Below are positions 1,895 through 16,339 of a DNA stretch of 64,000 bases, piece by piece. The position numbers and the translations under genes were made by a program. Origin of the DNA: Candidatus Latescibacterota bacterium (GTDB lineage Bacteria > Latescibacterota > UBA2968 > GCA-2709665); assembly GCA_965226795.1 (NCBI GenBank), contig CBDDDZ010000005.1, forward strand, positions 832,001 through 896,000, given 5' to 3'. Positions within the stretch are counted from its first letter, which is position 1. Each line of letters starts with the position of its first letter. The notes beneath the pieces were generated by a model. It was not told the origin of the DNA. It saw nothing but the letters and a program-made list of their open reading frames with translations, and ran no database searches.

Positions 1895-3385
1895 GTGTCC
1901 GTCATTGATAACATAGAGAGGGTCAGTATGGTTCGAAGAAAAGTGCCGGCCCCGACCTCCAGGGTTCGGCTCGGTTTCGCCCGTGTGGATATAACGCCGC
2001 CGGTGGGGATTTATCACCGGATGTGGGGCGCGGCCAGGCACGACAGGGCAACGGGCGTTCACCGCCCGATTCTGGGTGACGTGCTGGTGTTCGGGCCGGT
2101 GGACGCGCCCGATGAAATACGGCTGGTTCGGGCGCACCTGGACCTGGTCGGTCTGGTGGCCCGGCAGCACGCGGCGCTCGTGGATTCGCTCAGCGTTGCC
2201 GCCGGGGTGGGGCAGGATCGGGTGGACGTGACGTACTCACACACCCATTCCTCCGGGTGGTACGCACCGGATCGTTTCGAAATGCCGGGGGGCGAACTGA
2301 TTGAGCCCTTTCTGAAGGACGTGGGGAAAGAGCTGGTGCGGGCTTGCGAAGAGGCGTTGGCGGGGATGCGGGAGGTGCTGATTACCTATGCGCGCGGGCA
2401 TTGCAACATGGCGGCGGACAGGGACTATCGGGATAAAGTCTTCGGAGGCTACGTATGCGGGTATAATCCGGAGGGTGAGGGTGACGATACGCTGCTGGTG
2501 GGACGGATATGCGACGGAGAGGGCAGGACTGCGGCGACGGTGGTGAATTACGGATGCCATCCGACCACGCTGGCCTGGAAAAATACCCTGATCAGCCCGG
2601 ATTACGTGGGTGCGATGCGGGAGGAAGTCGAGAGGGTAACCGGGGCGCCCTGCACGTTCGCCCTGGCGCCCTGCGGGGACCTTGGGCCCAGAGACGGGTT
2701 TGTGGGAGATCCGGAAGTCGCCGAGAAGAACGGACGCCAGCTCGGGTTTGCGGCGCTCTCCGTCGTCATGTCCATGGGGCCTCCTGGCACGGATTTCGAA
2801 TACCAGGGACCCGTAATCTCGGGCGCCACGCTTGGTACCTGGGTGCACGTGGGATTCGGAGACGGGCGCTTGCGCTCCGCTTCGGTCGTTGGCGGCGGTG
2901 TATATTCCGTGGATCTGCCGATGAAAAAACGGCCGGACAGGGAGGCGCTTCTGGAGGATCTGGCGCGGTGGTCGGAAGCCGAGCGGGCGGCCGACGAGGC
3001 GGGCGACGCCCTGAAAGCCCGATCGTGCGGCGCCCGGACGGAGCGGGCCAGGCGCTGGCTGGCGCGGATCGCGAACCTGCCGCCGGGCGAGGCATACCCG
3101 TATCGATTCTCGGTTTATCGAATGGGAGACGCGATCTGGGTGACCTGCGGCGGGGAACCGTACAGCTTTCTGCAGGTCGAGTTGCGCCGGCGATTTCCCC
3201 GGTTCGTGATTCTGGTTTCTCCACTTTCGGGCAATTTACAGGTAGCTTATCTGTTGCGGAAAGACGCGTACGGCAAGGGACTGTACCAGGAGGAGCCGTC
3301 GAGCCTGGCCCCGGGCTGCCTGGAGACCCTGACCGACGCGATTGCGGCGCGAATCGAAGAACTCGTGGTAGTAGGTCAGTCTTAA
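1895..3385 (+). CDS. Neutral/alkaline ceramidase-like metallo-amidohydrolase
   Basis: 'GFARVDITPP', 'SHTHSS', 'NYGCHPT', 'ISPDYVG' and 'GGEPY' motifs of this family. Start could be GTG 1895 or ATG 1928. Confidence 0.7.
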   Translation: MSVIDNIERVSMVRRKVPAPTSRVRLGFARVDITPPVGIYHRMWGAARHDRATGVHRPILGDVLVFGPVDAPDEIRLVRAHLDLVGLVARQHAALVDSLSVAAGVGQDRVDVTYSHTHSSGWYAPDRFEMPGGELIEPFLKDVGKELVRACEEALAGMREVLITYARGHCNMAADRDYRDKVFGGYVCGYNPEGEGDDTLLVGRICDGEGRTAATVVNYGCHPTTLAWKNTLISPDYVGAMREEVERVTGAPCTFALAPCGDLGPRDGFVGDPEVAEKNGRQLGFAALSVVMSMGPPGTDFEYQGPVISGATLGTWVHVGFGDGRLRSASVVGGGVYSVDLPMKKRPDREALLEDLARWSEAERAADEAGDALKARSCGARTERARRWLARIANLPPGEAYPYRFSVYRMGDAIWVTCGGEPYSFLQVELRRRFPRFVILVSPLSGNLQVAYLLRKDAYGKGLYQEEPSSLAPGCLETLTDAIAARIEELVVVGQS

Positions 3386-4530: not shown

Positions 4531-5727
4531 ATGAAGAGAATCCTCGAACATGTGTGGGCGCGGTACCTGCTGACGTTCGGCCTGCTCCTCTCTGTGGCTG
4601 ACTGCGGTAAGACACCGCCCACCGTGGACGATGATCTGTACGAAGAGTACCCGGGGTTGCCCTACGGGATCATGATCACCCTCGCCGGCACCGGAGATGC
4701 AGGCAGGAATGCCGCGGGATCGGGTCCTCTGGATACACATCTGTATTTTCCCCAGGATATGACTGTCGGTCCCGACGGGCGGACGTACATTCTGGATTGG
4801 AACAACAATCGCGTTCTAGAGATCGACAACGGAGTCGTCCGTCCTCTCGTCGGCAACGGCGAACCGGGCGATGCGCCTGCGGGTCCGGCGCTGCAGGCGG
4901 GCATCGACCACCCGACCCATATTTCGTTCGATCCTCAGGGACGGCTGATCCTTTCGGCCTGGCAGAATTCCAGGATCCTGAGGTATGATTTTACCACAGG
5001 CCGCGTCGAACCCATTGCCGGCCGGGGCGAACGCGGTTTCGGGGGCAACGGCGGCCCCGCTCGCCAGGCCTCGTTAAATCTCCCGAGTTCCACTGTCTTC
5101 GACGAATCCGGTCGGATGTATATCTCGGATCAGGGAAACCTTCGCATTCGTATGGTGGATCTGAACGGTGTGATCTCCACCGTTGCGGGAACCGGGAGGG
5201 AGGGATTTGCCGGGGACGGCGGTCCTGCGATCCTGGCGGACCTCTATGCGCCGACGGGAGACGCGGCGCAGCCGGCCGGCCGGATCGCCATGGATAGCCG
5301 GGGTAACCTTTATATCGCAGATACGTTCAACCATCGCATCCGAATGGTGGATACCACGGGCAGGATCAGCACGGTGGCCGGCGGCGGCAGTATCGGCCCG
5401 ACTGCCGGAACGTATTCCGGAGATGGCGTACCGGCGACCGAGGCCAACCTATCGCGCCCCAGCGACGTGGTCGTCGATGCGGAAGGAAACCTGTTTATCG
5501 CCGATACCGGTAACCATTGCATCCGCAAGGTGGATACCAGCGGTATTATTACCACCCTGGCCGGCCGGTGTGGCGAGCCGGGTTTCAAGGGCGACAGTGA
5601 CCATCCCCGGTGGGGGAAACTCAGGAGTCCATACGGGGTCGCGCTCGATCAGGACGAGAATCTGTACATCGCCGATACGTTCAACCATCGGATTCGCGTA
5701 GTGTACAAGGAAATCGTCGAAAGGTGA
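4531..5727 (+). CDS. NHL-repeat beta-propeller protein, probable lipoprotein
   Basis: Repeats such as 'GNLYIADTFNHRIR' and 'STVAGTG..GF.GDGG'. Hydrophobic N-terminus ending 'LSVADCG'. ATG at 4531 chosen. Confidence 0.85.
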   Translation: MKRILEHVWARYLLTFGLLLSVADCGKTPPTVDDDLYEEYPGLPYGIMITLAGTGDAGRNAAGSGPLDTHLYFPQDMTVGPDGRTYILDWNNNRVLEIDNGVVRPLVGNGEPGDAPAGPALQAGIDHPTHISFDPQGRLILSAWQNSRILRYDFTTGRVEPIAGRGERGFGGNGGPARQASLNLPSSTVFDESGRMYISDQGNLRIRMVDLNGVISTVAGTGREGFAGDGGPAILADLYAPTGDAAQPAGRIAMDSRGNLYIADTFNHRIRMVDTTGRISTVAGGGSIGPTAGTYSGDGVPATEANLSRPSDVVVDAEGNLFIADTGNHCIRKVDTSGIITTLAGRCGEPGFKGDSDHPRWGKLRSPYGVALDQDENLYIADTFNHRIRVVYKEIVER

Positions 5728-5792: not shown

Positions 5793-6296
5793 ATGGGCAG
5801 GACGAATCTGGGTTGGATTACCGGTGCTGTGCTGGGGGCGGGCCTTATCTTCTGTCTCCCTGATGTCGGGGCCGCAAAGGAAGAGAATTCCAATCCGCTG
5901 CCTCGGGTGCAGCTTGTGACGTTAGAGGGAGATACGCTGAGTCTGACCGAAGTCTGCGAAGGCAAGACATCCTTCATTTATCTGTGGGCAACCTGGTGCA
6001 AAACCTGCAAGAAGGATATGAAGCATGTCTTCAAGTTGAGGGAAAAATTCGGAGAGAAGGTGCAGGTCTTCGGCATCGCGTGGAAGAACAGCGCCGAGGA
6101 GATTCAGACCTACTTCGCAGGCAGGAAGGAATCTCTGCACAGTTATATCGATACGGATGGAAGGGTGTTCGAGGCCTTCGAGACCCGGCTCACACCCACG
6201 GTGGTGATCGTAGACGGCCGGGGGGAGGTCCTTTTTTTCGGATACGCTTCCTTTGGAAAATTCAGAAAACTGCTGGACCAGGCATTGAAGGGTTAG
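5793..6296 (+). CDS. TlpA/ResA-family thioredoxin-fold disulfide reductase
   Basis: 'LWATWCKTCK' CxxC motif, 'TPTVVIVD' cis-Pro loop, N-terminal signal/anchor, GAGGA RBS. Confidence 0.9.
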   Translation: MGRTNLGWITGAVLGAGLIFCLPDVGAAKEENSNPLPRVQLVTLEGDTLSLTEVCEGKTSFIYLWATWCKTCKKDMKHVFKLREKFGEKVQVFGIAWKNSAEEIQTYFAGRKESLHSYIDTDGRVFEAFETRLTPTVVIVDGRGEVLFFGYASFGKFRKLLDQALKG

Positions 6297-6338
6297 TCGT
6301 CGATTGAACGCTAACCAAACCTTGGAGGAGCGTGGACG

Positions 6339-7313
6339 ATGAGATGGTTCTTGCTGGTTTTTGCGTTGGTCCTGTTCACCCCACTGTTTCCAGGAAACAG
6401 ATCTGTTCTGGCGCAACCCGGCGTAAGTTGACGTCGTCCCGTACTCCCGGGCGGGAGAATGCTCCAGGGCAGTCTGATTACCCAGGATCTTTTCGTTGTG
6501 AGCGTGAATTACGAGTATGAGTTTCTGGGCGATGCGATGTTCGGTACAGGGCCGATCCCCAACGTCAACCAGGAAGTCACCAGCATTTCAACGGTGTCGG
6601 TGTTCGCAAGTTACGGGGTCAAGGAATGGTTCGGCGCCGCCGTAGTTCTCCCGTTTCGTTCCATAACCAACGACAAATTTCTTCTACCAGGTCAGTACGA
6701 CAACCAGTATCAGGGCGGCGAGTATGTTCGGCATGCCGCCGGTCTCGGCGACGTTGTTCTGATGTTGAACTTTGCTCCCCCTCTGCCGAAAGCATTGCCC
6801 GGGCTGCTTTTTTCGGCAGGTGTCAAGCTCGCTAACGGGTCGACCCACGCGGTCGATGAGTACGGCCAGCGGTTCGCCGACTTGCTGCAGGTGGGTTCCG
6901 GCAGCGTGGACCCCATTTTCTCCGTAAGTCTGTCGCACGCCTTCAATAACCTGTTTTTCTCCGGTATGCTGTTCACACGCATTATTTCCCGCGAGAATGT
7001 ATACGGTTACAAATACGGGAACGAGTTTCAGGGCATCTTTTCGATGGAATATACGCATGGGGGCATGTTTTTTGCGGGTCTCAGCCTGAACCATGTTTAC
7101 ACGGCTCGCGATTATTTCCAATATGGAAAAATCGCCCGAAAACGCGGGGGCGCCTGGCTCTATGTCGCGCCGAAGCTGGGCGTACGGACAATGGAGAACC
7201 TGAGCCTGGAAGCGAGGTTGCCGCTTCCCGTTTTCCAGAATGTTAACGAAAGCCAGCTAACCTCCGATTATCAGCTCCATGTGGGCGCCACGTATCATTT
7301 TTTGGCTCGATAA
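6339..7313 (+). CDS. Outer-membrane beta-barrel (MetA-pathway/'transporter'-like) with in-frame TGA at codon 31; candidate selenoprotein
   Basis: GGAGG RBS, ATG 6339, signal peptide MRWFLLVFALVLF...SVLA|Q, TGA at 6429-6431, then the same frame continues into the 284-aa ORF with 'GLGDV', 'GVKLANGS', 'LQVGSGSVD' and a C-terminal 'GATYHF' strand. Confidence 0.7.
6440..6461 (+). promoter_or_regulatory. Putative bacterial SECIS hairpin
   Basis: CTCCC-GGGC-GGGAG stem-loop, extendable by C-G, G-U and U-A pairs. The G-initiated loop starts 17 nt after the TGA. Confidence 0.5.
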
Positions 7314-8465: not shown

Positions 8466-9830
8466 ATGGAATCGCGTAGAGACAATGGCAATGGCAGGAC
8501 CGAGCGCAACCCTCAGGTTTTGGGCAAGAATTTCATGTTTCCGCCCCACGTGATCGACGATATCCATATCAAGGCGAATCTGGGTCGGTATCGCATGCGC
8601 GGGATGGCGCTCTTCAAGCAGATTCCATCATGGGACGACCTCACGTTTCTGCCGGGCACGCTCACCCGGTTCGTGATCGAGGGATACCGTGAAAAATGCG
8701 AAACCAGGACGGTGCTGGGGCCTATGGCCAGGCGGCCGCTGGTACTGGATATTCCCGTCTACATTACGGGGATGAGCTTCGGCGCGTTGTCCTACGAGGC
8801 GAAGGTGGCGCTGGCGAGAGGGGCCACGATGGCGGGCACGGCGACCTGTTCCGGAGAAGGCGGAATGCTGCCCGACGAGCGCCGGTATTCGGAGAAGTGG
8901 CTGTACCAGTGCATTCAGTCCCGATACGGGTTCAATCCACACCATATGCGTCTTGCCGACGGCGTGGAGTTTTTTATCGGGCAGGGATGCAAGGTGGGGC
9001 TTGGCGGCCACCTGATGGGCCAGAAGGTGACCGACCAGGTGGCCGAGATGCGTTCGTTGCCGGCGGGGATCGATCAGCGTTCTCCCGCAAGGCACCCGGA
9101 CTGGCTGGGCCCCGATGATCTGGCTTTAAAGATTGAGGAGATCCGTGAGGCGACCAACTGGCAGATTCCCATTCAGTTGAAACTTGGCGCTGCGCGGGTG
9201 TACGACGACGTGCGGATGGCGGCAAAGACGGGGCCCGACAGTATATATATGGACGGGATGGAGGGGTCGACGGGAGCGGGGCCCCATCTGGCCACCGAGG
9301 AGACGGGCGTACCGGGCATCGCGGCCATCAGGCAGGCCAGAAAGGCACTGGACGACGTGGGTAAGACCGGGAAGATTACGCTCGTCTATGCCGGCGGGAT
9401 TCGCAACGGAGCCGACGTGGCCAAGGCGCTGGCGCTCGGAGCCGACGCGGTGGCGATCGGTACGGCGGCGATGGTGGCGCTGAATTGCAACAAGGACATC
9501 CCCGAAGCGGATTACGAAGGCACGGTTGGCGTACCGGCGGGATACTGCTATCACTGCCATACCGGACTGTGTCCCGTGGGCGTAGCCACCCAGGATCCGG
9601 TGCTGCGCAGCCGCCTGGACCCGGACGACGCGGCCGAACGGGTTTATAACTTCCTGCATACCCTGGCCATCGAATGCCAGATGTTCGCCAGGGCTTGCGG
9701 CAAGACCAATGTACATTCCCTGGAGCCGGAGGATCTTGCCGCGCTCACAATGGAGGCCTCCGCTATGGCGGAGGTGCCGTTGGCAGGCACCCGATATACG
9801 GTCGGGCATCCCGAGATGAACAGGTATTGA
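8466..9830 (+). CDS. FMN-binding glutamate synthase-family protein (N-methylglutamate synthase subunit C, GlxD/MgsC-like)
   Basis: 'GMSFGALS', 'SGEGG', 'GQGCKVGLGGHL', 'GGIRNGADVAKALALGAD' and Fe-S 'CYHCHTGLCPVGVATQD'; lies in a methylamine gene cluster. Confidence 0.88.
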   Translation: MESRRDNGNGRTERNPQVLGKNFMFPPHVIDDIHIKANLGRYRMRGMALFKQIPSWDDLTFLPGTLTRFVIEGYREKCETRTVLGPMARRPLVLDIPVYITGMSFGALSYEAKVALARGATMAGTATCSGEGGMLPDERRYSEKWLYQCIQSRYGFNPHHMRLADGVEFFIGQGCKVGLGGHLMGQKVTDQVAEMRSLPAGIDQRSPARHPDWLGPDDLALKIEEIREATNWQIPIQLKLGAARVYDDVRMAAKTGPDSIYMDGMEGSTGAGPHLATEETGVPGIAAIRQARKALDDVGKTGKITLVYAGGIRNGADVAKALALGADAVAIGTAAMVALNCNKDIPEADYEGTVGVPAGYCYHCHTGLCPVGVATQDPVLRSRLDPDDAAERVYNFLHTLAIECQMFARACGKTNVHSLEPEDLAALTMEASAMAEVPLAGTRYTVGHPEMNRY

Positions 9831-9926
9831 GTTCCGGAAAGGACCGCACGGGGATCTTCAGCACCGGTACAGGCCGCCCGCCAATCGGGTGGTTTCAGTG
9901 GTGGAATCCGCACACAGGAGAATCCG

Positions 9927-10343
9927 ATGGACGTAGCCAAAGACGTGAACTATTATCTGAAGTCCACGGGTCTGGACTCGGACCGAGAGAAAGAAATCGG
10001 ACAGCACATCGGATATCGGTACGATGTAAACCTACCGCCGGACTATGAGCTCCTGACCCCGTTTTTGAAGCGATACATCGAGTTGATGGGGTGGCGTGAC
10101 CTGAACTGGCTGGAAGATGTGCATATGGGATACGAAGACGGAAAGCCCGCGGTATTCGACCGGAATATCAATGGCTGGGTGCTGGTTCCGGAAGAAATGG
10201 CATTGCCCGACAACCAGCAGGAGCGTGACATGATTGCGCGGGAACTGCTCGTCAAGTTTCAAATGTCCGAGAAGCATCCGATTGTGGAACTCAGAGATGC
10301 ATACGGAATAACGCTTGAATGCGATGCCGCGTCCTCCGGGTAG
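9927..10343 (+). CDS. Hypothetical protein (138 aa)
   Basis: AGGAG RBS, globular-looking composition, co-oriented within the cluster. Confidence 0.75.
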   Translation: MDVAKDVNYYLKSTGLDSDREKEIGQHIGYRYDVNLPPDYELLTPFLKRYIELMGWRDLNWLEDVHMGYEDGKPAVFDRNINGWVLVPEEMALPDNQQERDMIARELLVKFQMSEKHPIVELRDAYGITLECDAASSG

Positions 10344-10554
10344 CCAGTACAAACAGTCTACAGCGGTGCGCCCGGCGGCTGTACGGCAGCGCTTCTGCGA
10401 AGGACCGACCGGGGTGCAGTGCGGCGATGTACTGTCGGCGGAAATCGTTGTGACTCCTTGAAAATACGTGTCTTATGTCATTCTCAGACGGCGTGCTTCT
10501 CCCAGGGCGCGTTCGACTCTGATTGCCGGCATCAGCTAAAACCGGGGAGGCATT

Positions 10555-11949
10555 ATGAGCAAGACAAAGATGTGGGGCCCGGAGGCGTTCTGGGGAATGG
10601 ACTACGACTGGGACCCCCAATGGGTACTGACATCTGAGCAGGAGGCACTCCAGGAAAAACTGATCGAACTTTGCCGGACAACGCTGCGGGATAACGCGGT
10701 AGAGAGTGATCGCAACCTTGTGTTTCCGCGGGAAAACCTCGAGGCGCTGGCTTCGCTGGGCCTGCTCGGATTGAACGTACCACGGGAGTGGGGAGGGTTG
10801 GAAGAAAACCATACGTGTACGGCGATGGTGGTGGAGACGCTTGCGCGTTACGGGTGCGCCAGTACGGCGATGTGTTATACCATGCACATCGGCGCCGTGG
10901 CCGCGGCCATGTTCCGGGCGCACGACAACCCGACCCTTCAGGATCTCATGAAACGCCTCGACGAAGACGTGCTGGTAGGCACGTTATCCTATTCGGACCC
11001 GGAGACGGGTTCTCATTTCTGGTATCCGATATCTTCCGGGGCCGAGCGGGTGGCGGACGGCTGGAAGGTACGAAAGAAGGCGTCGTGGACGACGTCCGCG
11101 GGTTTTGCCGACTGGTACATCGTGCAGACGACGAGTCCCGATTTCGCGGGGGATTATTCGAATCTGTCCTGTTTTCTCGTGATGGCCGACGAGGTGAAAG
11201 CCGAGCCGTCCCTGTGGGATGGCCTGGGTCTGCGCGGGAACCAGTCCGGCACGCTTGAGGTTGACAACGTGACGATGCCGGAGGACAGGCTGGTCGGGCC
11301 CGTGGGAGACGGGGCGAATTCGAACGACGAAACGGTGGATCCGTTTTTCCTGTTGTGCTCATCGGCTTGCTGGAACGGCATTTCTTTGGGGATGATCGAT
11401 ATCGCCACGCGACACACGACCGCCAGGCGGCATGCGGACGTGGGTATGCGGGTGGCGGACTATCCGACGATCCAGGATTACGTGGGTGAGGCCGTGATCG
11501 ATACCAATACTTCCCGGTCCTTTGTCTACCTGATGGCCAGGGCGATGGACGATGTGACGAACCAGTGCGACTGGTCGATCCACGAGGACCTTTCCTGCAT
11601 GCCCCGGGCACAGGTGCTGCACTGGATGTGGCAGGTGAAGTTCACGGCGGCAAAGAACGTGACAAACGTCTCCGACAAGATGCTTCATGCCTGTGGCGGC
11701 ACTGGGTACAAACCCGATCTGGGGATCGAACGTTACCTGCGTGACGGTAAGGCCGGTTGGGTGATGGGCCCAACCAACGAGGTCCTCCGCCAGTTTGTGG
11801 GCAAGAGCGTGCTGTTGGGTTTTGACTCCCTGGATTATTGGAACCAGTCCGTGAACGAACGGTTATTGAGGAACGAACTCAGGAAGATGGACGGTAAGGA
11901 AAAGGAGGAACTCGCGCGGCAGCTTCTGGCCGAAGCCGATGAGGGGTGA
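10555..11949 (+). CDS. Acyl-CoA dehydrogenase-fold flavoprotein, probable flavin-dependent monooxygenase component
   Basis: 'LSYSDPETGS', 'KKASWTTS', 'WDGLGLRGNQS' and 'IERYLRDGKAGWVMGPTNEV'. The usual 'IYEGT' catalytic Glu is absent. Confidence 0.85.
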   Translation: MSKTKMWGPEAFWGMDYDWDPQWVLTSEQEALQEKLIELCRTTLRDNAVESDRNLVFPRENLEALASLGLLGLNVPREWGGLEENHTCTAMVVETLARYGCASTAMCYTMHIGAVAAAMFRAHDNPTLQDLMKRLDEDVLVGTLSYSDPETGSHFWYPISSGAERVADGWKVRKKASWTTSAGFADWYIVQTTSPDFAGDYSNLSCFLVMADEVKAEPSLWDGLGLRGNQSGTLEVDNVTMPEDRLVGPVGDGANSNDETVDPFFLLCSSACWNGISLGMIDIATRHTTARRHADVGMRVADYPTIQDYVGEAVIDTNTSRSFVYLMARAMDDVTNQCDWSIHEDLSCMPRAQVLHWMWQVKFTAAKNVTNVSDKMLHACGGTGYKPDLGIERYLRDGKAGWVMGPTNEVLRQFVGKSVLLGFDSLDYWNQSVNERLLRNELRKMDGKEKEELARQLLAEADEG

Positions 11950-14282
11950 TGCCTGCAAACGTCCAAATGACGGGAACCGGATTGCCGAGATGGACACCGG
12001 GCAGGGAGCGCTACCGGGTGCCGGGCGGCGGGGCGATCGCCCTGGCGCTGTCGCAAGGCGATCAACTGGCGGTTGTGGACGTGGAAGGGCGCCAGCGTTG
12101 CGAACTGGGCGTATTCGGCCCGGACGGGGGTGACGATCCGTCGAGGCTGGGCCTCCGGGCGGATGGCGCAATGGAAGGATTCGCGGCGGCGCTCAGGCGC
12201 GGGGACGAAAGCGCGCAGGCGGCTGATGCTGCCCTGCGGCGGAGGGGCGTCGACCTGTCGGACGCGCGGGCGGTGCAGGTTTTCGGTGGAGAGACGAAAG
12301 CGGGCACCGAAGCGTGTTTCGCCGTCGAGAGGGACGCCGTTTGCGTGATTGCGGCGCCCGGCGGTCCGATGAGGGCCGATGCCCAGGATCCCCCCACGGA
12401 CCTGGAAGTCGTGGTCAGGCGTTCCCGTGTAGAAATGTCCGAACGCCCCCCGATGCCCGCGCCCCTGGGTGACATGCGCCTGGATCGGGAGGTAGAAAGG
12501 GCGTCGGCAATCGCCTACGAGGTCAAGGCGGGAGAGTTCATCCAGGTGATCGACGTCGCTGGTCGCCAGTGTTCCGATTTTCTGGCATTCGACGCCAGGC
12601 AATTGCAGCGGGGTGTCGAGCGGGGGCTGGATGCGACCACGACGAGGACGCTCATGGGCGCGGCCTATCCCGGTCCGGGCCTGTTTTCGAAATTTTACGA
12701 CCAGGATATGCATCCGCTGGTCGAAGTCGTTCGGGATACGGTAGGGCGGCACGATACGTTTGCGCTTGCGTGCACCGCGAAATATTACGAGGATATGGGT
12801 TATCCCGGTCACGTCAACTGTACGGACAACTTCAACGTGGCATTGGATCCGTATACGATTCAGCGCCGGCGCGGCTGGCCCGCGGTGAATTTTTTCTACA
12901 ATACGAGAATCGATCAGAATAACGTCCTTTTCATGGATGAGCCATGGTCTCGTCCGGGCGATTACGTGCTGTTGAAAGCCTTAACGGACCTTGTCTGCCT
13001 GTCGTCCGCGTGCCCGGACGATATCGATCCGGCCAATGGCTGGGAGCCAACGGAGATTCAGGTTCGCGTTTACCCTGAACGGTACCGGTTTTCCAGAGGG
13101 ATTGCTCACCGGATGACGGCAGACGCCGAGCCGAGGTTGACGAGGGAGACGGCCTTCCACCAACGCACCTCTGCCTTGACTCGCCATTTTGAGGAATATC
13201 GCGGTTTTTGGCTGCCCGCCTGCTATACCGGGAAGGGCGTCGTTGAGGAATATTACGCCTGCCGCGAGGCGGCGGTGGTGATGGATCTGTCCGCGCTTCG
13301 CAAGTTCGAGGTTCTCGGGCCGGACGCCGAGGCGCTGTTGCAGCACACGCTCACACGCGACGTTCGCAGGCTTTCGGCGGGGCAGGTGACTTATTCCGCC
13401 ATGTGTTACGAAACAGGCGGGATGCTGGACGACGGCACGCTGTTTCGGTTGGGGTCCGAGAATTTCCGCTGGATCTGCGGCGACGATTACGGGGGTACGT
13501 GGTTGCGCGAGCAGGCGGGTCGCCTGGGGATGCGTGTATGGGTCAGAAATTCGACCGACCAACTCCACAATCTTGCCGTTCAGGGCCCCAGGAGCCGGGA
13601 AATTCTGCGCGAAATCATCTGGACGCCTCCGTCCCGCCCGTCACTGGACGAATTGGGCTGGTTCCGATTTACGGTGGGTCGAATTGGCGATGGAAGCGGA
13701 GCGGCGATTGTCGTATCCCGGACGGGCTACACGGGCGAACTGGGTTATGAGGTATGGTGCCATCCCCACGATGCGCCTGCGGTCTGGGATGCCATTTGGG
13801 AGGCGGGACAGCCGTATGGCCTGACACCGCTGGGATTGGAAGCCCTGGACATGCTGCGGATTGAGTCTGGTCTGGTCTTCGCGGGCTGTGAGTTTGACGA
13901 TCAGACGGACCCGTTTGAGGCGGGTATAGGCTTCACCGTTCCGCTCAAGCGCAAGAAAGACGATTTTATAGGCAAGGAGGCGCTGATTCGAAGGCGGTCG
14001 CATCCGCAACGTGTGTTGGTGGGGCTGGAGGTATCCGGAAACGAGCCAGCCGCCACCGGCGACGGCGTCTACGATGGGCGCGGCCGCGTGGGCGTGATTA
14101 CCAGCGGCAGCCGTTCGCCCATTTTGCGCAGGAATATCGCGCTATGCCGCATGGCGTTCGGGTACGCCGCGATCGGCGTGGAAGTGGAGGTGGGAAGGCT
14201 GGACGGTCATCAGAAGCGCATCCCCGCCCGGGTGGTGCGGTTTCCGTTTTACGATCCCGGGAAAACCCGGCCGCGTTCCTGA
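11949..14282 (+). CDS. tdm: Trimethylamine N-oxide demethylase (DUF1989 + GcvT/aminomethyltransferase domains)
   Basis: DUF1989 'GRQCSDF', 'GRHDTFALAC', 'GHVNCTDNF', 'SSACPDDID' metal-ligand motifs fused to GcvT 'SRTGYTGELGYE'. Start is ATG 11949 or GTG 11946. Confidence 0.88.
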   Translation: MPANVQMTGTGLPRWTPGRERYRVPGGGAIALALSQGDQLAVVDVEGRQRCELGVFGPDGGDDPSRLGLRADGAMEGFAAALRRGDESAQAADAALRRRGVDLSDARAVQVFGGETKAGTEACFAVERDAVCVIAAPGGPMRADAQDPPTDLEVVVRRSRVEMSERPPMPAPLGDMRLDREVERASAIAYEVKAGEFIQVIDVAGRQCSDFLAFDARQLQRGVERGLDATTTRTLMGAAYPGPGLFSKFYDQDMHPLVEVVRDTVGRHDTFALACTAKYYEDMGYPGHVNCTDNFNVALDPYTIQRRRGWPAVNFFYNTRIDQNNVLFMDEPWSRPGDYVLLKALTDLVCLSSACPDDIDPANGWEPTEIQVRVYPERYRFSRGIAHRMTADAEPRLTRETAFHQRTSALTRHFEEYRGFWLPACYTGKGVVEEYYACREAAVVMDLSALRKFEVLGPDAEALLQHTLTRDVRRLSAGQVTYSAMCYETGGMLDDGTLFRLGSENFRWICGDDYGGTWLREQAGRLGMRVWVRNSTDQLHNLAVQGPRSREILREIIWTPPSRPSLDELGWFRFTVGRIGDGSGAAIVVSRTGYTGELGYEVWCHPHDAPAVWDAIWEAGQPYGLTPLGLEALDMLRIESGLVFAGCEFDDQTDPFEAGIGFTVPLKRKKDDFIGKEALIRRRSHPQRVLVGLEVSGNEPAATGDGVYDGRGRVGVITSGSRSPILRRNIALCRMAFGYAAIGVEVEVGRLDGHQKRIPARVVRFPFYDPGKTRPRS

Positions 14283-14401
14283 TCACAAAGCAAAATCTGC
14301 TTCTCTTCACCGGTCATCACGGCGGCCTCGTTCAAGGAGCCCGGATGTCCGGCGGCGGACGGCGCCGTATGCGACACCGCTTTCGTTGAAAGGGTATTGG
14401 A

Positions 14402-14890
14402 ATGGCGTTCGACCCGATGGAGCAACGCCGCATTATGGGTTGTTTTGCAACGGGCGTAACCGTTTTGACGACGGTTGCAGGCGGCGAGTCGCGGGGGATG
14501 ACGGCCAATGCGGTGACCTCGCTGTCGCTGGATCCGCCGCTGGTCATGGTGGCGGTGGACAAGGACGCGCAGATGCACGGGTACTTGAGCGGAAGCCGGT
14601 ATTTTGCATTGAATATTTTAAGTGAGGACCAGGAAGCGCTCTCCACGCAATTTGCGCGCCCCGGCCCCAAAGATTTTTCGAACGTGCCGACAACGACGGT
14701 TCGTACCGGGATGCCGGTGTTCGTGGAGGCCCTCGGTTACGTGGAGTGTCGGCTCGTGGAGGTGTTGCGGGCTGGCGATCACGATATTTTCGTTGGAGAG
14801 ATTGTGGCGGGTGATGCGGTAGACGGTCGTCCACTGTTGTTTTACCGGGGAAAGTATCGGCGGATGATGGAAGAGCCGCCGCACCTCTGA
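14402..14890 (+). CDS. Flavin reductase (HpaC/DIM6/NTAB family)
   Basis: 'FATGVTV', 'GMTANAVTSLSLDPPLV', 'GDHDIFVGE' and 'PLLFYRG' motifs. Confidence 0.93.
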   Translation: MAFDPMEQRRIMGCFATGVTVLTTVAGGESRGMTANAVTSLSLDPPLVMVAVDKDAQMHGYLSGSRYFALNILSEDQEALSTQFARPGPKDFSNVPTTTVRTGMPVFVEALGYVECRLVEVLRAGDHDIFVGEIVAGDAVDGRPLLFYRGKYRRMMEEPPHL

Positions 14891-14944
14891 TGCATTACCA
14901 TCGCATATGCATTTGCTTTCTTCAAGCTCAAACGGGGGGTAGGT

Positions 14945-16339
14945 ATGGATAACGAGCTCAGTGCGTTGACCGTCATTTTTACCGAGTTCTATTACTGGGT
15001 ATGTATTGTACTCATGTTTCTGATCCACGTCGGCTTCTGTCTATACGAAGTGGGTGTGTCCAGACGGAAAAACATGATGCACACCCTGATGAAGAACGCG
15101 ATGCTGATTCCTCTGGTGACCGTCACGTTCTATTTTTTCGGGTGGTGGATCTATTTCGCGGTTCAAAACGGGCCCGGGATCACGGGTGGGCTTATCGAAG
15201 CCGCATGGGCTGCGCCCTGGAATGAGCTTATGGGATCACATATGGGAGGAAAGCCGCACGGAGGGGGGTTGACAGGGGCCGATACGGCGCTCTGGGCGCG
15301 GTTGAACGGCGTGTTCTGGGCGGCGTTTCTGTTGTTTGCATGGACGGCGGGATCGATTCTTTCGGGCGCGGTGATTGAACGCATCCGATCCAGCGCATTC
15401 TGGATTTTTGCGGTCTTGGTGGGATCGGTCACGTGGGTAGTCGACGCGGCGTGGGGATGGTCCGCAGACGGTTGGATGGTGCAGGTACTGGGGTATCACG
15501 ATGCGTATGCCTCCGGCGTGATCCACGCGATCTGCGGCGGGTCCGCGCTGGCGATTCTCTATCACCTTGGGCCGCGCATCGGCAGGTTCAAGCCGGACGG
15601 GGCACCTAGAAATTTCCCGCCGCACAACACCTGGCTGGTGATCATCGGACTGTTTCTGATTTATACGGGATTCTGGGGCTTCTACGCGGCTTGCAACGTG
15701 CCCATTATGGACATCGATCCCGCCGACGGCCGGTCGTTCTTTTCGGCCACAACGATTTACCTTACGCCGACGACGCTTAGCGCCATCACCTTTAACTTTT
15801 TGATGTCGCTCGCCGGTGGATTGATGATGGGGTATTTCGTGTCAAAAGGCGATCCTTACTGGACCTTCTCCGGCGGGTTGGCGGGTATCATCACGGCATC
15901 GGCCGGAAACGATCTGTACCATCCGATGCAGGCGCTTCTCATCGGAGCATTCGGCACGTTCTGCATCTACAAGTTGCACAACTGGGTCGAGCGCCGTTTC
16001 AGAATTGACGATGCCGTGGGCGCCGTGGCGGTACATGGATATGCCGGGGTAATCGGGGTGATTGTCGCAGGATTCGTACTTTGGGGGTATCCGGGTGCGA
16101 ATCCCGCTTACGCCCCGATTACGCCCTGGGGACAGACGCTTGGGGCCGTCATTATGTTTTTCGTGCTGGGTTTTCTGCCCTGTTACGTCGTGGGGGCAAT
16201 CCTCAAGAAGCTGGGCGTTCTCCGCATTCCAAAGCGAATTGAACTGGCGGGTATGGATCACCGGACGATCGAGAACGAAACAGCGGACGCAATCGAACTC
16301 GTTCAGGTGGAAATTGATGAAGCTCAAGGGGGAAACTAG
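14945..16339 (+). CDS. amt: Ammonium/methylammonium transporter (divergent Amt family)
   Basis: About 11 hydrophobic segments; 'SGAVIER', 'SGVIHAICG', 'LGPRIGRF' and 'IDDAVGAVAVHG'; twin His retained. Confidence 0.9.
   Translation: MDNELSALTVIFTEFYYWVCIVLMFLIHVGFCLYEVGVSRRKNMMHTLMKNAMLIPLVTVTFYFFGWWIYFAVQNGPGITGGLIEAAWAAPWNELMGSHMGGKPHGGGLTGADTALWARLNGVFWAAFLLFAWTAGSILSGAVIERIRSSAFWIFAVLVGSVTWVVDAAWGWSADGWMVQVLGYHDAYASGVIHAICGGSALAILYHLGPRIGRFKPDGAPRNFPPHNTWLVIIGLFLIYTGFWGFYAACNVPIMDIDPADGRSFFSATTIYLTPTTLSAITFNFLMSLAGGLMMGYFVSKGDPYWTFSGGLAGIITASAGNDLYHPMQALLIGAFGTFCIYKLHNWVERRFRIDDAVGAVAVHGYAGVIGVIVAGFVLWGYPGANPAYAPITPWGQTLGAVIMFFVLGFLPCYVVGAILKKLGVLRIPKRIELAGMDHRTIENETADAIELVQVEIDEAQGGN

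Follow-up and report, generated by a model that had tools for sequence, protein, structure and literature searches.

The gene at positions 6339 to 7313 of the window (the whole 64,000-nucleotide stretch of "Candidatus Latescibacterota" DNA analyzed here) very likely encodes an uncatalogued selenoprotein variant of the COG4313-type channels, to judge from its sequence. Its codon 31 is an in-frame TGA that is kept in dozens of related genes, along with a hairpin that co-evolves with it, and which is therefore very likely read as selenocysteine (Sec). An earlier note had proposed this gene as a candidate new selenoprotein, and the proposal is supported by the conservation of the TGA, the covarying hairpin, and the Sec machinery of the genome. 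The locus contains the following features.

4531 to 5727, forward strand: NHL-repeat beta-propeller, likely a lipoprotein (judged by eye), found upstream in 18 of 18 members of the clade.
5793 to 6296, forward strand: TlpA/ResA-like redoxin with an N-terminal hydrophobic segment and a WCKTC motif, directly upstream and likely in the same operon.
6324 to 6328, forward strand: Shine-Dalgarno sequence GGAGG, 10 nt 5' of the ATG at 6339.
6339 to 6413, forward strand: predicted signal peptide of 25 codons ending in VLA, based on the sequence and on a hydrophobic in-frame segment in the relatives.
6414 to 6488, forward strand: N-terminal arm of the mature protein, QPGVS-U-RRPVLPGG, 25 residues, predicted from the structural model and by analogy with Pput2725 to form a pore plug.
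6429 to 6431, forward strand: in-frame TGA, codon 31, very likely selenocysteine, based on conservation and on contigs from public runs.
6444 to 6457, forward strand: SECIS hairpin CTCCC-GGGC-GGGAG, based on covariation and geometry.
6459 to 6461, forward strand: internal ATG, not conserved, taken by the gene caller as the start of a truncated protein.
6489 to 7313, forward strand: predicted outer membrane beta-barrel of the COG4313/FapF type, ending with the TAA at 7311 to 7313, based on the model, profile, and fold searches.

The gene consists of a single frame of 324 codons, from the ATG at 6339 to the TAA ending at 7313, and its product contains no Cys among its 324 residues. The N terminus of the product reads MRWFLLVFALVLFTPLFPGNRSVLA|QPGVS, followed by the TGA and RRPVLPGG; the cleavage site after VLA was placed by eye and from hydropathy, and counting from this presumed site makes the TGA residue 6 of the mature protein. 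The anatomy given in the earlier note is thus borne out, including the GGAGG ribosome-binding site and ATG start in frame with the barrel, the signal-like leader (by eye and hydropathy) that runs in one frame from VLA|Q through the TGA, the absence of Cys, and the position of Sec. A hydrophobic in-frame segment precedes the TGA in all 69 relatives, 60 of which start with ATG and 7 with GTG or TTG, with no start codon found in the remaining 2. Ala at position -6 and Gln at position -5 are each found in 58 of the 69. The internal ATG appears dispensable, since ATG is absent at codons +10 and +11 in 24 of these relatives. Of 36 close database proteins, 35 have been called in the short form and consequently miss the N terminus. 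A promoter scan returned no sites, and terminator matches were near the chance level.

The TGA itself does not stem from an assembly error, as 7 of 8 public runs have contigs that cross it with zero differences at the codon (X12 has no cover there, and X1 is possibly the source DNA). This stretch is contained in runs labeled sponge metagenome. Contigs from RNA libraries also cover the gene; they were set aside as an indication of transcription, which contigs cannot show. The closest named relatives, 85 to 91% identical, belong to metagenome-assembled genomes labeled Latescibacterota or Gemmatimonadota. A paralogue in the same genome (L038; C5:1404240-1405136, reverse strand), which is 55% identical, carries the same TGA motif and hairpin. 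Two copies, each with one TGA, are encoded in every one of the 14 other genomes of the genus, and both barrel copies are present in all 15. Altogether, 136 loci were collected, of which 99 with at least 150 bits from the profile start were kept and 37 distant or partial ones were dropped. The TGA is found at the same position in 99 of 99 filtered loci, corresponding to 69 of 69 distinct full-length genes, and is never replaced by TAA or TAG, so that the check for a conserved TGA at codon 31 suggested in the earlier note comes out in its favor. These 69 genes come from Latescibacterota, KSB1, Calditrichota, and Marinimicrobia/Fidelibacterota, as well as from further metagenome contigs. Among 251 genomes sampled from the Marinimicrobia phylum, 16 strong matches were found, 10 of them already in the set and 6 new, and the TGA motif is seen in all 16. 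A more distant variant, AVA-TGA-RRPTLPG, is found in G321. The residues around the TGA, Gly-Val/Ile-Ser before it and Arg-Arg-Pro after it, are conserved at the amino acid level, whereas their codons vary freely among synonyms: Ser at -1 is encoded by both AGY and TCN, Arg at +1 by all six of its codons, and Pro at +3 by all four. This is the pattern predicted by translation through the TGA.

The genome encodes the required machinery, with selA, selB, and the tRNA-Sec gene (selC) in one cluster and selD, which has an in-frame TGA of its own, also present, so that all four genes the earlier note had suggested looking for were found. TGA is the commonest true stop codon in this genome, terminating 1,075 of 2,111 long coding open reading frames (ORFs), and so keeps its role as a stop rather than having been reassigned to Trp or Gly. 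Both selA and selB are found in 29 of 32 other genomes with the TGA form, the three misses being drafts of unstated completeness. In the Marinimicrobia-phylum sample, selA is present in 15 of 16 genomes with the TGA form versus 192 of 251 overall; with this baseline, and with kin that are not independent, co-occurrence with the Sec machinery discriminates weakly. The latter count also indicates a high rate of Sec use in that group.

On the 3' side of the TGA, 12 nt are followed by CTCCC (6444 to 6448), the loop GGGC (6449 to 6452), GGGAG (6453 to 6457), a single A, and the ATG at 6459. The stem and loop reported earlier are therefore present, but the spacing needs correction, as the stem begins 12 nt after the UGA and it is the loop that begins 17 nt after it. 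The loop of 4 nt, the stem of 5 bp, the GGGC sequence, and the 17-nt spacing all fall within the limits of the bacterial SECIS model given in section 5 of PMC13188914 (loop of 3 to 9 nt, stem of 4 to 16 bp, an early G in the loop, spacing of 16 to 37 nt, and energy of -7.5 kcal/mol or lower). The hairpin shares with the bacterial SECIS consensus the 4-nt loop with G in first place, the 5-bp stem, and the 17-nt spacing. The bare hairpin of this gene, at -7.0 kcal/mol, lies above the energy limit of the model; the alignment consensus reaches -7.72 kcal/mol including covariation. Folding of single sequences was dropped as support in favor of covariation, since the hairpin alone does not exceed chance (z of 0.15 to 0.70 for the two segments that begin with the UGA) and the minimum-energy fold at this place is a competing structure. 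The pairing probability of this gene's hairpin in isolation is 0.03 to 0.40, and the hairpin reaches a probability above 0.5 in just 41 of the 69 genes. The significance of the hairpin comes from its conservation, not from its fold in this gene alone.

RNAalifold finds the 5-bp hairpin unaided in an alignment of 56 distinct 51-nt sequences. Its middle pair (18-27) joins the third bases of Leu at +5 and Gly at +8 and is paired in all 56 variants, as C-G in 37, U-A in 10, A-U in 4, U-G in 3, and G-C in 2. It shows 16 double changes, a number reached by none of 500 shuffles and compared with at most 1 in slid controls, in the one pair of the five in which covariation can show; two pairs never vary. 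Among 120 third-position pairs it ranks first, followed by the pair of the first and last loop bases. Mapped onto a protein tree built from 68 genes, the middle pair undergoes 10 or more changes of state; U-A appears at 5 separate places, and no mismatch occurs. Leu at +5 is always encoded by CTN, never by TTA or TTG, and the C-G pair persists down to a GC3 of 0.17. The genome contains 146,598 TGA triplets, of which 13 fit the spacing and top of the hairpin, and only three of these, in selD and the two barrel genes, are followed by at least 290 open codons. The selD hairpin has the same geometry and the same CC-GG(G/U)C-GG top, with a stem of 7 bp versus 5 bp in the barrel gene. The output of a looser genome-wide SECIS screen was mostly noise.

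The predicted product is an outer membrane beta-barrel, as the earlier note had it, which is backed by structure prediction and a fold search. AlphaFold2 models the mature protein, in which Cys was substituted for Sec, with a pLDDT of 94.6; residues 1 to 20 have pLDDT values of 74 to 78, and the first long strand begins at residue 26. Foldseek matches the model to FapF (PDB entries 5O65 and 5O67; E of 2.7e-12) and to Pput2725 (4RL8; E of 7.5e-12, TM scores of 0.69/0.76). FapF is the best match in profile searches as well (E of 1.3e-11), and Pput2725/COG4313 is matched with an E of 4.8e-4. Searches of Pfam, and of NCBIfam 20.0 with E values up to 0.1, return no matches for the query protein, including none to PF13557; precomputed PF13557 matches are found on 7 of 37 homologues, which are about 54% identical, and on distant ones. 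With Pput2725, the Sec barrel shares the predicted fold, a short N-terminal arm, and the GD and KLxxG motifs; it differs in having a Sec residue in the arm, in its sequence (about 10% identity), and in its fixed propeller and TlpA neighbors. The first 14 residues of Pput2725 fill the lumen from the periplasmic side, and the word "cysteine" is absent from the accessible text of that paper (PMC4493636). By analogy, the 25-residue arm of the Sec barrel would sit in the lumen, entering from the periplasmic side. FapF, in contrast, has a periplasmic coiled coil (PMC6173795), for which the Sec barrel, with only 25 residues before its first strand, has no room. It lacks the long periplasmic N-terminal domain of FapF, has no fap genes among the neighbors scanned, and carries Sec.

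A beta-propeller gene adjoins the Sec barrel gene in 65 of 66 loci with flanking sequence. A gene for a TlpA-like protein with a CxxC motif is located upstream in 36 of the 66 and is absent beside 30; counting fusions, a thioredoxin-type partner is found in 37. In 47 loci the next gene downstream encodes a beta-propeller of the YVTN type, whose N-terminal Cys is conserved, and TlpA and the YVTN propeller occur together in 18, from KSB1, Calditrichota, Marinimicrobia, and others. The clade of the window comprises 18 genes, all with TlpA and the NHL propeller upstream. Within the genome analyzed here, the paralogue L038 keeps the YVTN propeller downstream, and the window copy keeps TlpA. The sole locus with neither TlpA nor a propeller (L119:3971-5296, forward strand) encodes a TGA-containing barrel fused to a CxxC thioredoxin domain. 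The same barrel-thioredoxin fusion is seen in six database proteins (P0045, P0046, P0053, P0058, P0061, and P0072), one cluster of which is named Poribacteria; all six are N-terminally short and probably hide an in-frame TGA too. Apart from the lipid anchor, the downstream propellers have no conserved Cys. The neighbors scanned included no recurring metal-transport genes beside the TGA forms, no recurring catabolic genes, and no amyloid-type genes.

The favored function, tentative and with slightly less than an even chance of being right, is a redox-reset, selenol-gated uptake pore with Sec on its plug, which would be fed by the propeller lipoprotein. The starting points are the start codon, the signal-like segment, the TGA, the hairpin, the Sec machinery, and the conservation described above. 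SelB would read the hairpin and Sec would be inserted at codon 31, which is very likely. The product is predicted to be exported, cleaved after VLA, and folded into a barrel of the COG4313/FapF type, and its 25-residue arm, as in Pput2725, would enter the lumen from the periplasm and fold there. Compared with a thiol, a selenol has greater acidity and nucleophilicity. The selenolate, placed beside Arg-Arg, might capture a thiophilic cargo presented by the beta-propeller lipoprotein, candidates being disulfide or persulfide compounds and the ions of soft metals or metalloids. Proteins of the TlpA type act as reductants of disulfides in the periplasm; periplasmic TlpA might likewise reduce the adduct, thereby releasing the cargo and reopening the gate. 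Capture and release, taken jointly, are given a little under an even chance.

Alternatively, the Sec barrel could be a FapF-like export channel for the partner lipoprotein or another polypeptide, with Sec serving as a redox latch or a quality-control site on the plug. FapF being the best match in both sequence and structure, the near-universal propeller neighbor, and the DUF3179 or small cytochrome proteins that adjoin Cys-type relatives all agree with export. However, the missing space for the coiled coil, the lack of amyloid-type genes among the neighbors scanned, and the downstream propellers devoid of conserved Cys beyond the anchor make it unlikely.

Relatives without the TGA were studied by reading the best 150 of 3,224 representatives (E up to 0.001). 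Of the 110 in this subset that look full-length, 100 have two Cys residues near the N terminus (CC, CxC, or CxxxxC, a loose pattern). The first Cys lies 27 residues before an anchor Tyr in 45 of 46 CC and 11 of 12 CxC proteins, and Sec is at the same distance in 35 of 35; the distance varies in the CxxxxC class. An alignment with Sec written as Cys had placed it opposite Cys in most relatives; it was rejected as biased and redone with Sec masked. In the masked MAFFT alignment, Sec faces a gap in 101 of 107 rows without TGA, and the Cys pair lies two or three columns before it; masked hhalign comparisons match Sec to Cys in one (CxC) of the three Cys classes. Sec and the Cys pairs of the relatives thus appear to share the same arm, in an ambiguous exact register.

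The nearer relatives without TGA never have Cys at this position. They have Ser (P0023, 46% identical, and P0082), Glu (P0175), Pro (P0043), or Trp (P0052, a 172-residue fragment from a 634-nt contig, in which Trp may come from a table-4 gene call). The earlier note had directed attention to homologues with Trp, Arg, or Gly here; the one Trp fragment and the four proteins with Ser, Glu, or Pro are exceptions that do not outweigh the TGA in 69 of 69 genes.

Cys-type barrel genes adjoin genes for DUF3179 proteins in 5 loci and for TlpA in 5 others, sometimes along with a small cytochrome c, and redoxin genes stand beside such barrels in plasmid annotations. Loci with DUF3179 or with TlpA and dihaem cytochrome c (L165 and L169 to L172; L129, L131, L137, L139, and L140) are apparently parallel modules, and some Cys-pair barrel loci also adjoin a sensor kinase. 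A mercury-operon setting for the Cys-type relatives was considered and rejected, as none of the 16 listed loci shows it (the scan covered 25 out of 120 ORFs); only L125 and L192 have metal-handling neighbors. In L192 (positions 2284 to 2847, forward strand; G350), a CopZ/MerP-like protein with two in-frame TGAs (GLT-U-SL-U) is encoded immediately downstream of the gene for a barrel that lacks Cys and belongs to the wider family.

The use of Ser, Glu, or Pro instead of Cys in the nearer relatives would also be expected if Sec is inserted and the codon acts mainly as a selenium-dependent translation switch with an incidental residue. The early position of the codon, which makes failure cheap, and the lack of a partner Cys in the mature protein point the same way. 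This is nevertheless improbable, because Sec remains in the mature protein, both flanks of the codon are under selection at the amino acid level, distant relatives have Cys pairs in the same arm, and TlpA adjacency or fusion characterizes more than half of the loci. An equally doubtful proposal is that the selenoprotein imports small hydrophobic molecules and that Sec only stabilizes or gates the plug. It draws on the fold match to Pput2725, the PF13557 matches on homologues, and the uptake of hydrophobic molecules in which COG4313 channels such as SphA and TcpY are implicated, the role proposed for that family in PMC4493636; it leaves the cost of Sec and the link to TlpA unexplained, and the neighbors scanned include no recurring catabolic genes. 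Finally, the TGA might be a true stop (in a pseudogene, through an error, or followed by a restart from ATG 6459), or it might be translated as Trp or Gly; this could account for the short forms in databases, the Trp in P0052, and the hairpin that is weak in isolation, but it is very improbable and largely refuted by the TGA itself, which neither TAA nor TAG replaces in any of 69 genes from several phyla, a signal segment that stays in frame, an internal ATG missing from 24 of them, the role of TGA as the main stop of the genome, the covarying hairpin, and the agreement of contigs from independent runs.

Some other regions of this genome also deserve mention. At C5:828085 (forward strand), about 3.9 kb before the start of the window, an exported barrel-like frame of 220 codons contains two in-frame TGAs (TPT-U-VG-U-P) preceded by a signal-like segment. 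A small SelW-like frame (family assigned by eye) at C5:46475 (reverse strand), with CAA-TGA-GY and a downstream hairpin, is likely a further selenoprotein. Positions 8466 to 16339 of the window contain what we take to be a methylamine/glycine-betaine-type cluster, with a glutamate synthase-like FMN domain, an acyl-CoA dehydrogenase, a DUF1989-aminomethyltransferase, a flavin reductase, and an ammonium transporter.

The barrel family is absent from Table 1 of the 2026 catalogue of 119 families (PMC13188914) and has no model in NCBIfam 20.0; within these two sources, the assertion that the barrel family includes no characterized selenoprotein holds. Nor is it among the nine new deep-Sep families as presented in the accessible part of PMC12013277, and the terms "barrel," "porin," and "outer membrane" are absent from the accessible BSepDB text and one supplement (PMC13326102). 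A literature search found no description of the family and nothing relevant on PF13557 in combination with cysteine and metal; supplementary files to Haft and Tolstoy (2025) and to Deng et al. (2026) could contain the family. Outer membrane selenoproteins listed in Table 1 of PMC13188914 are the GSU2204 family (NF041027) and the FCYXU TonB-dependent receptor (NF049945). Like the Sec barrel, these are exported or barrel-associated with a predicted Sec; the Sec barrel differs from them in size and motif, having no CxxU, CXXCH, or Cys, and has no NCBIfam match.

The Sec barrel would add a selenoprotein family from abundant uncultured marine and sponge-associated lineages, misannotated in 35 of 36 close database records, and would place selenium in a predicted pore rather than in a soluble redox enzyme. 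With a minimal SECIS of only 5 bp and no clean Cys counterpart to its Sec, it has two features that standard searches are likely to miss. A broader and more speculative proposal is that marine bacteria of the FCB group possess a three-part envelope machine, consisting of a surface propeller lipoprotein, a small barrel with a single Sec on its plug, and a periplasmic thioredoxin, in which a thiophilic cargo would be moved through the outer membrane by covalent selenium chemistry, not by diffusion or TonB energy; the widespread Cys-pair barrels might then be its sulfur versions. PF13557-like barrels with an N-terminal Cys pair form a large group that is still unstudied; for these, the Sec residue indicates the likely reactive site, by which their function becomes testable.
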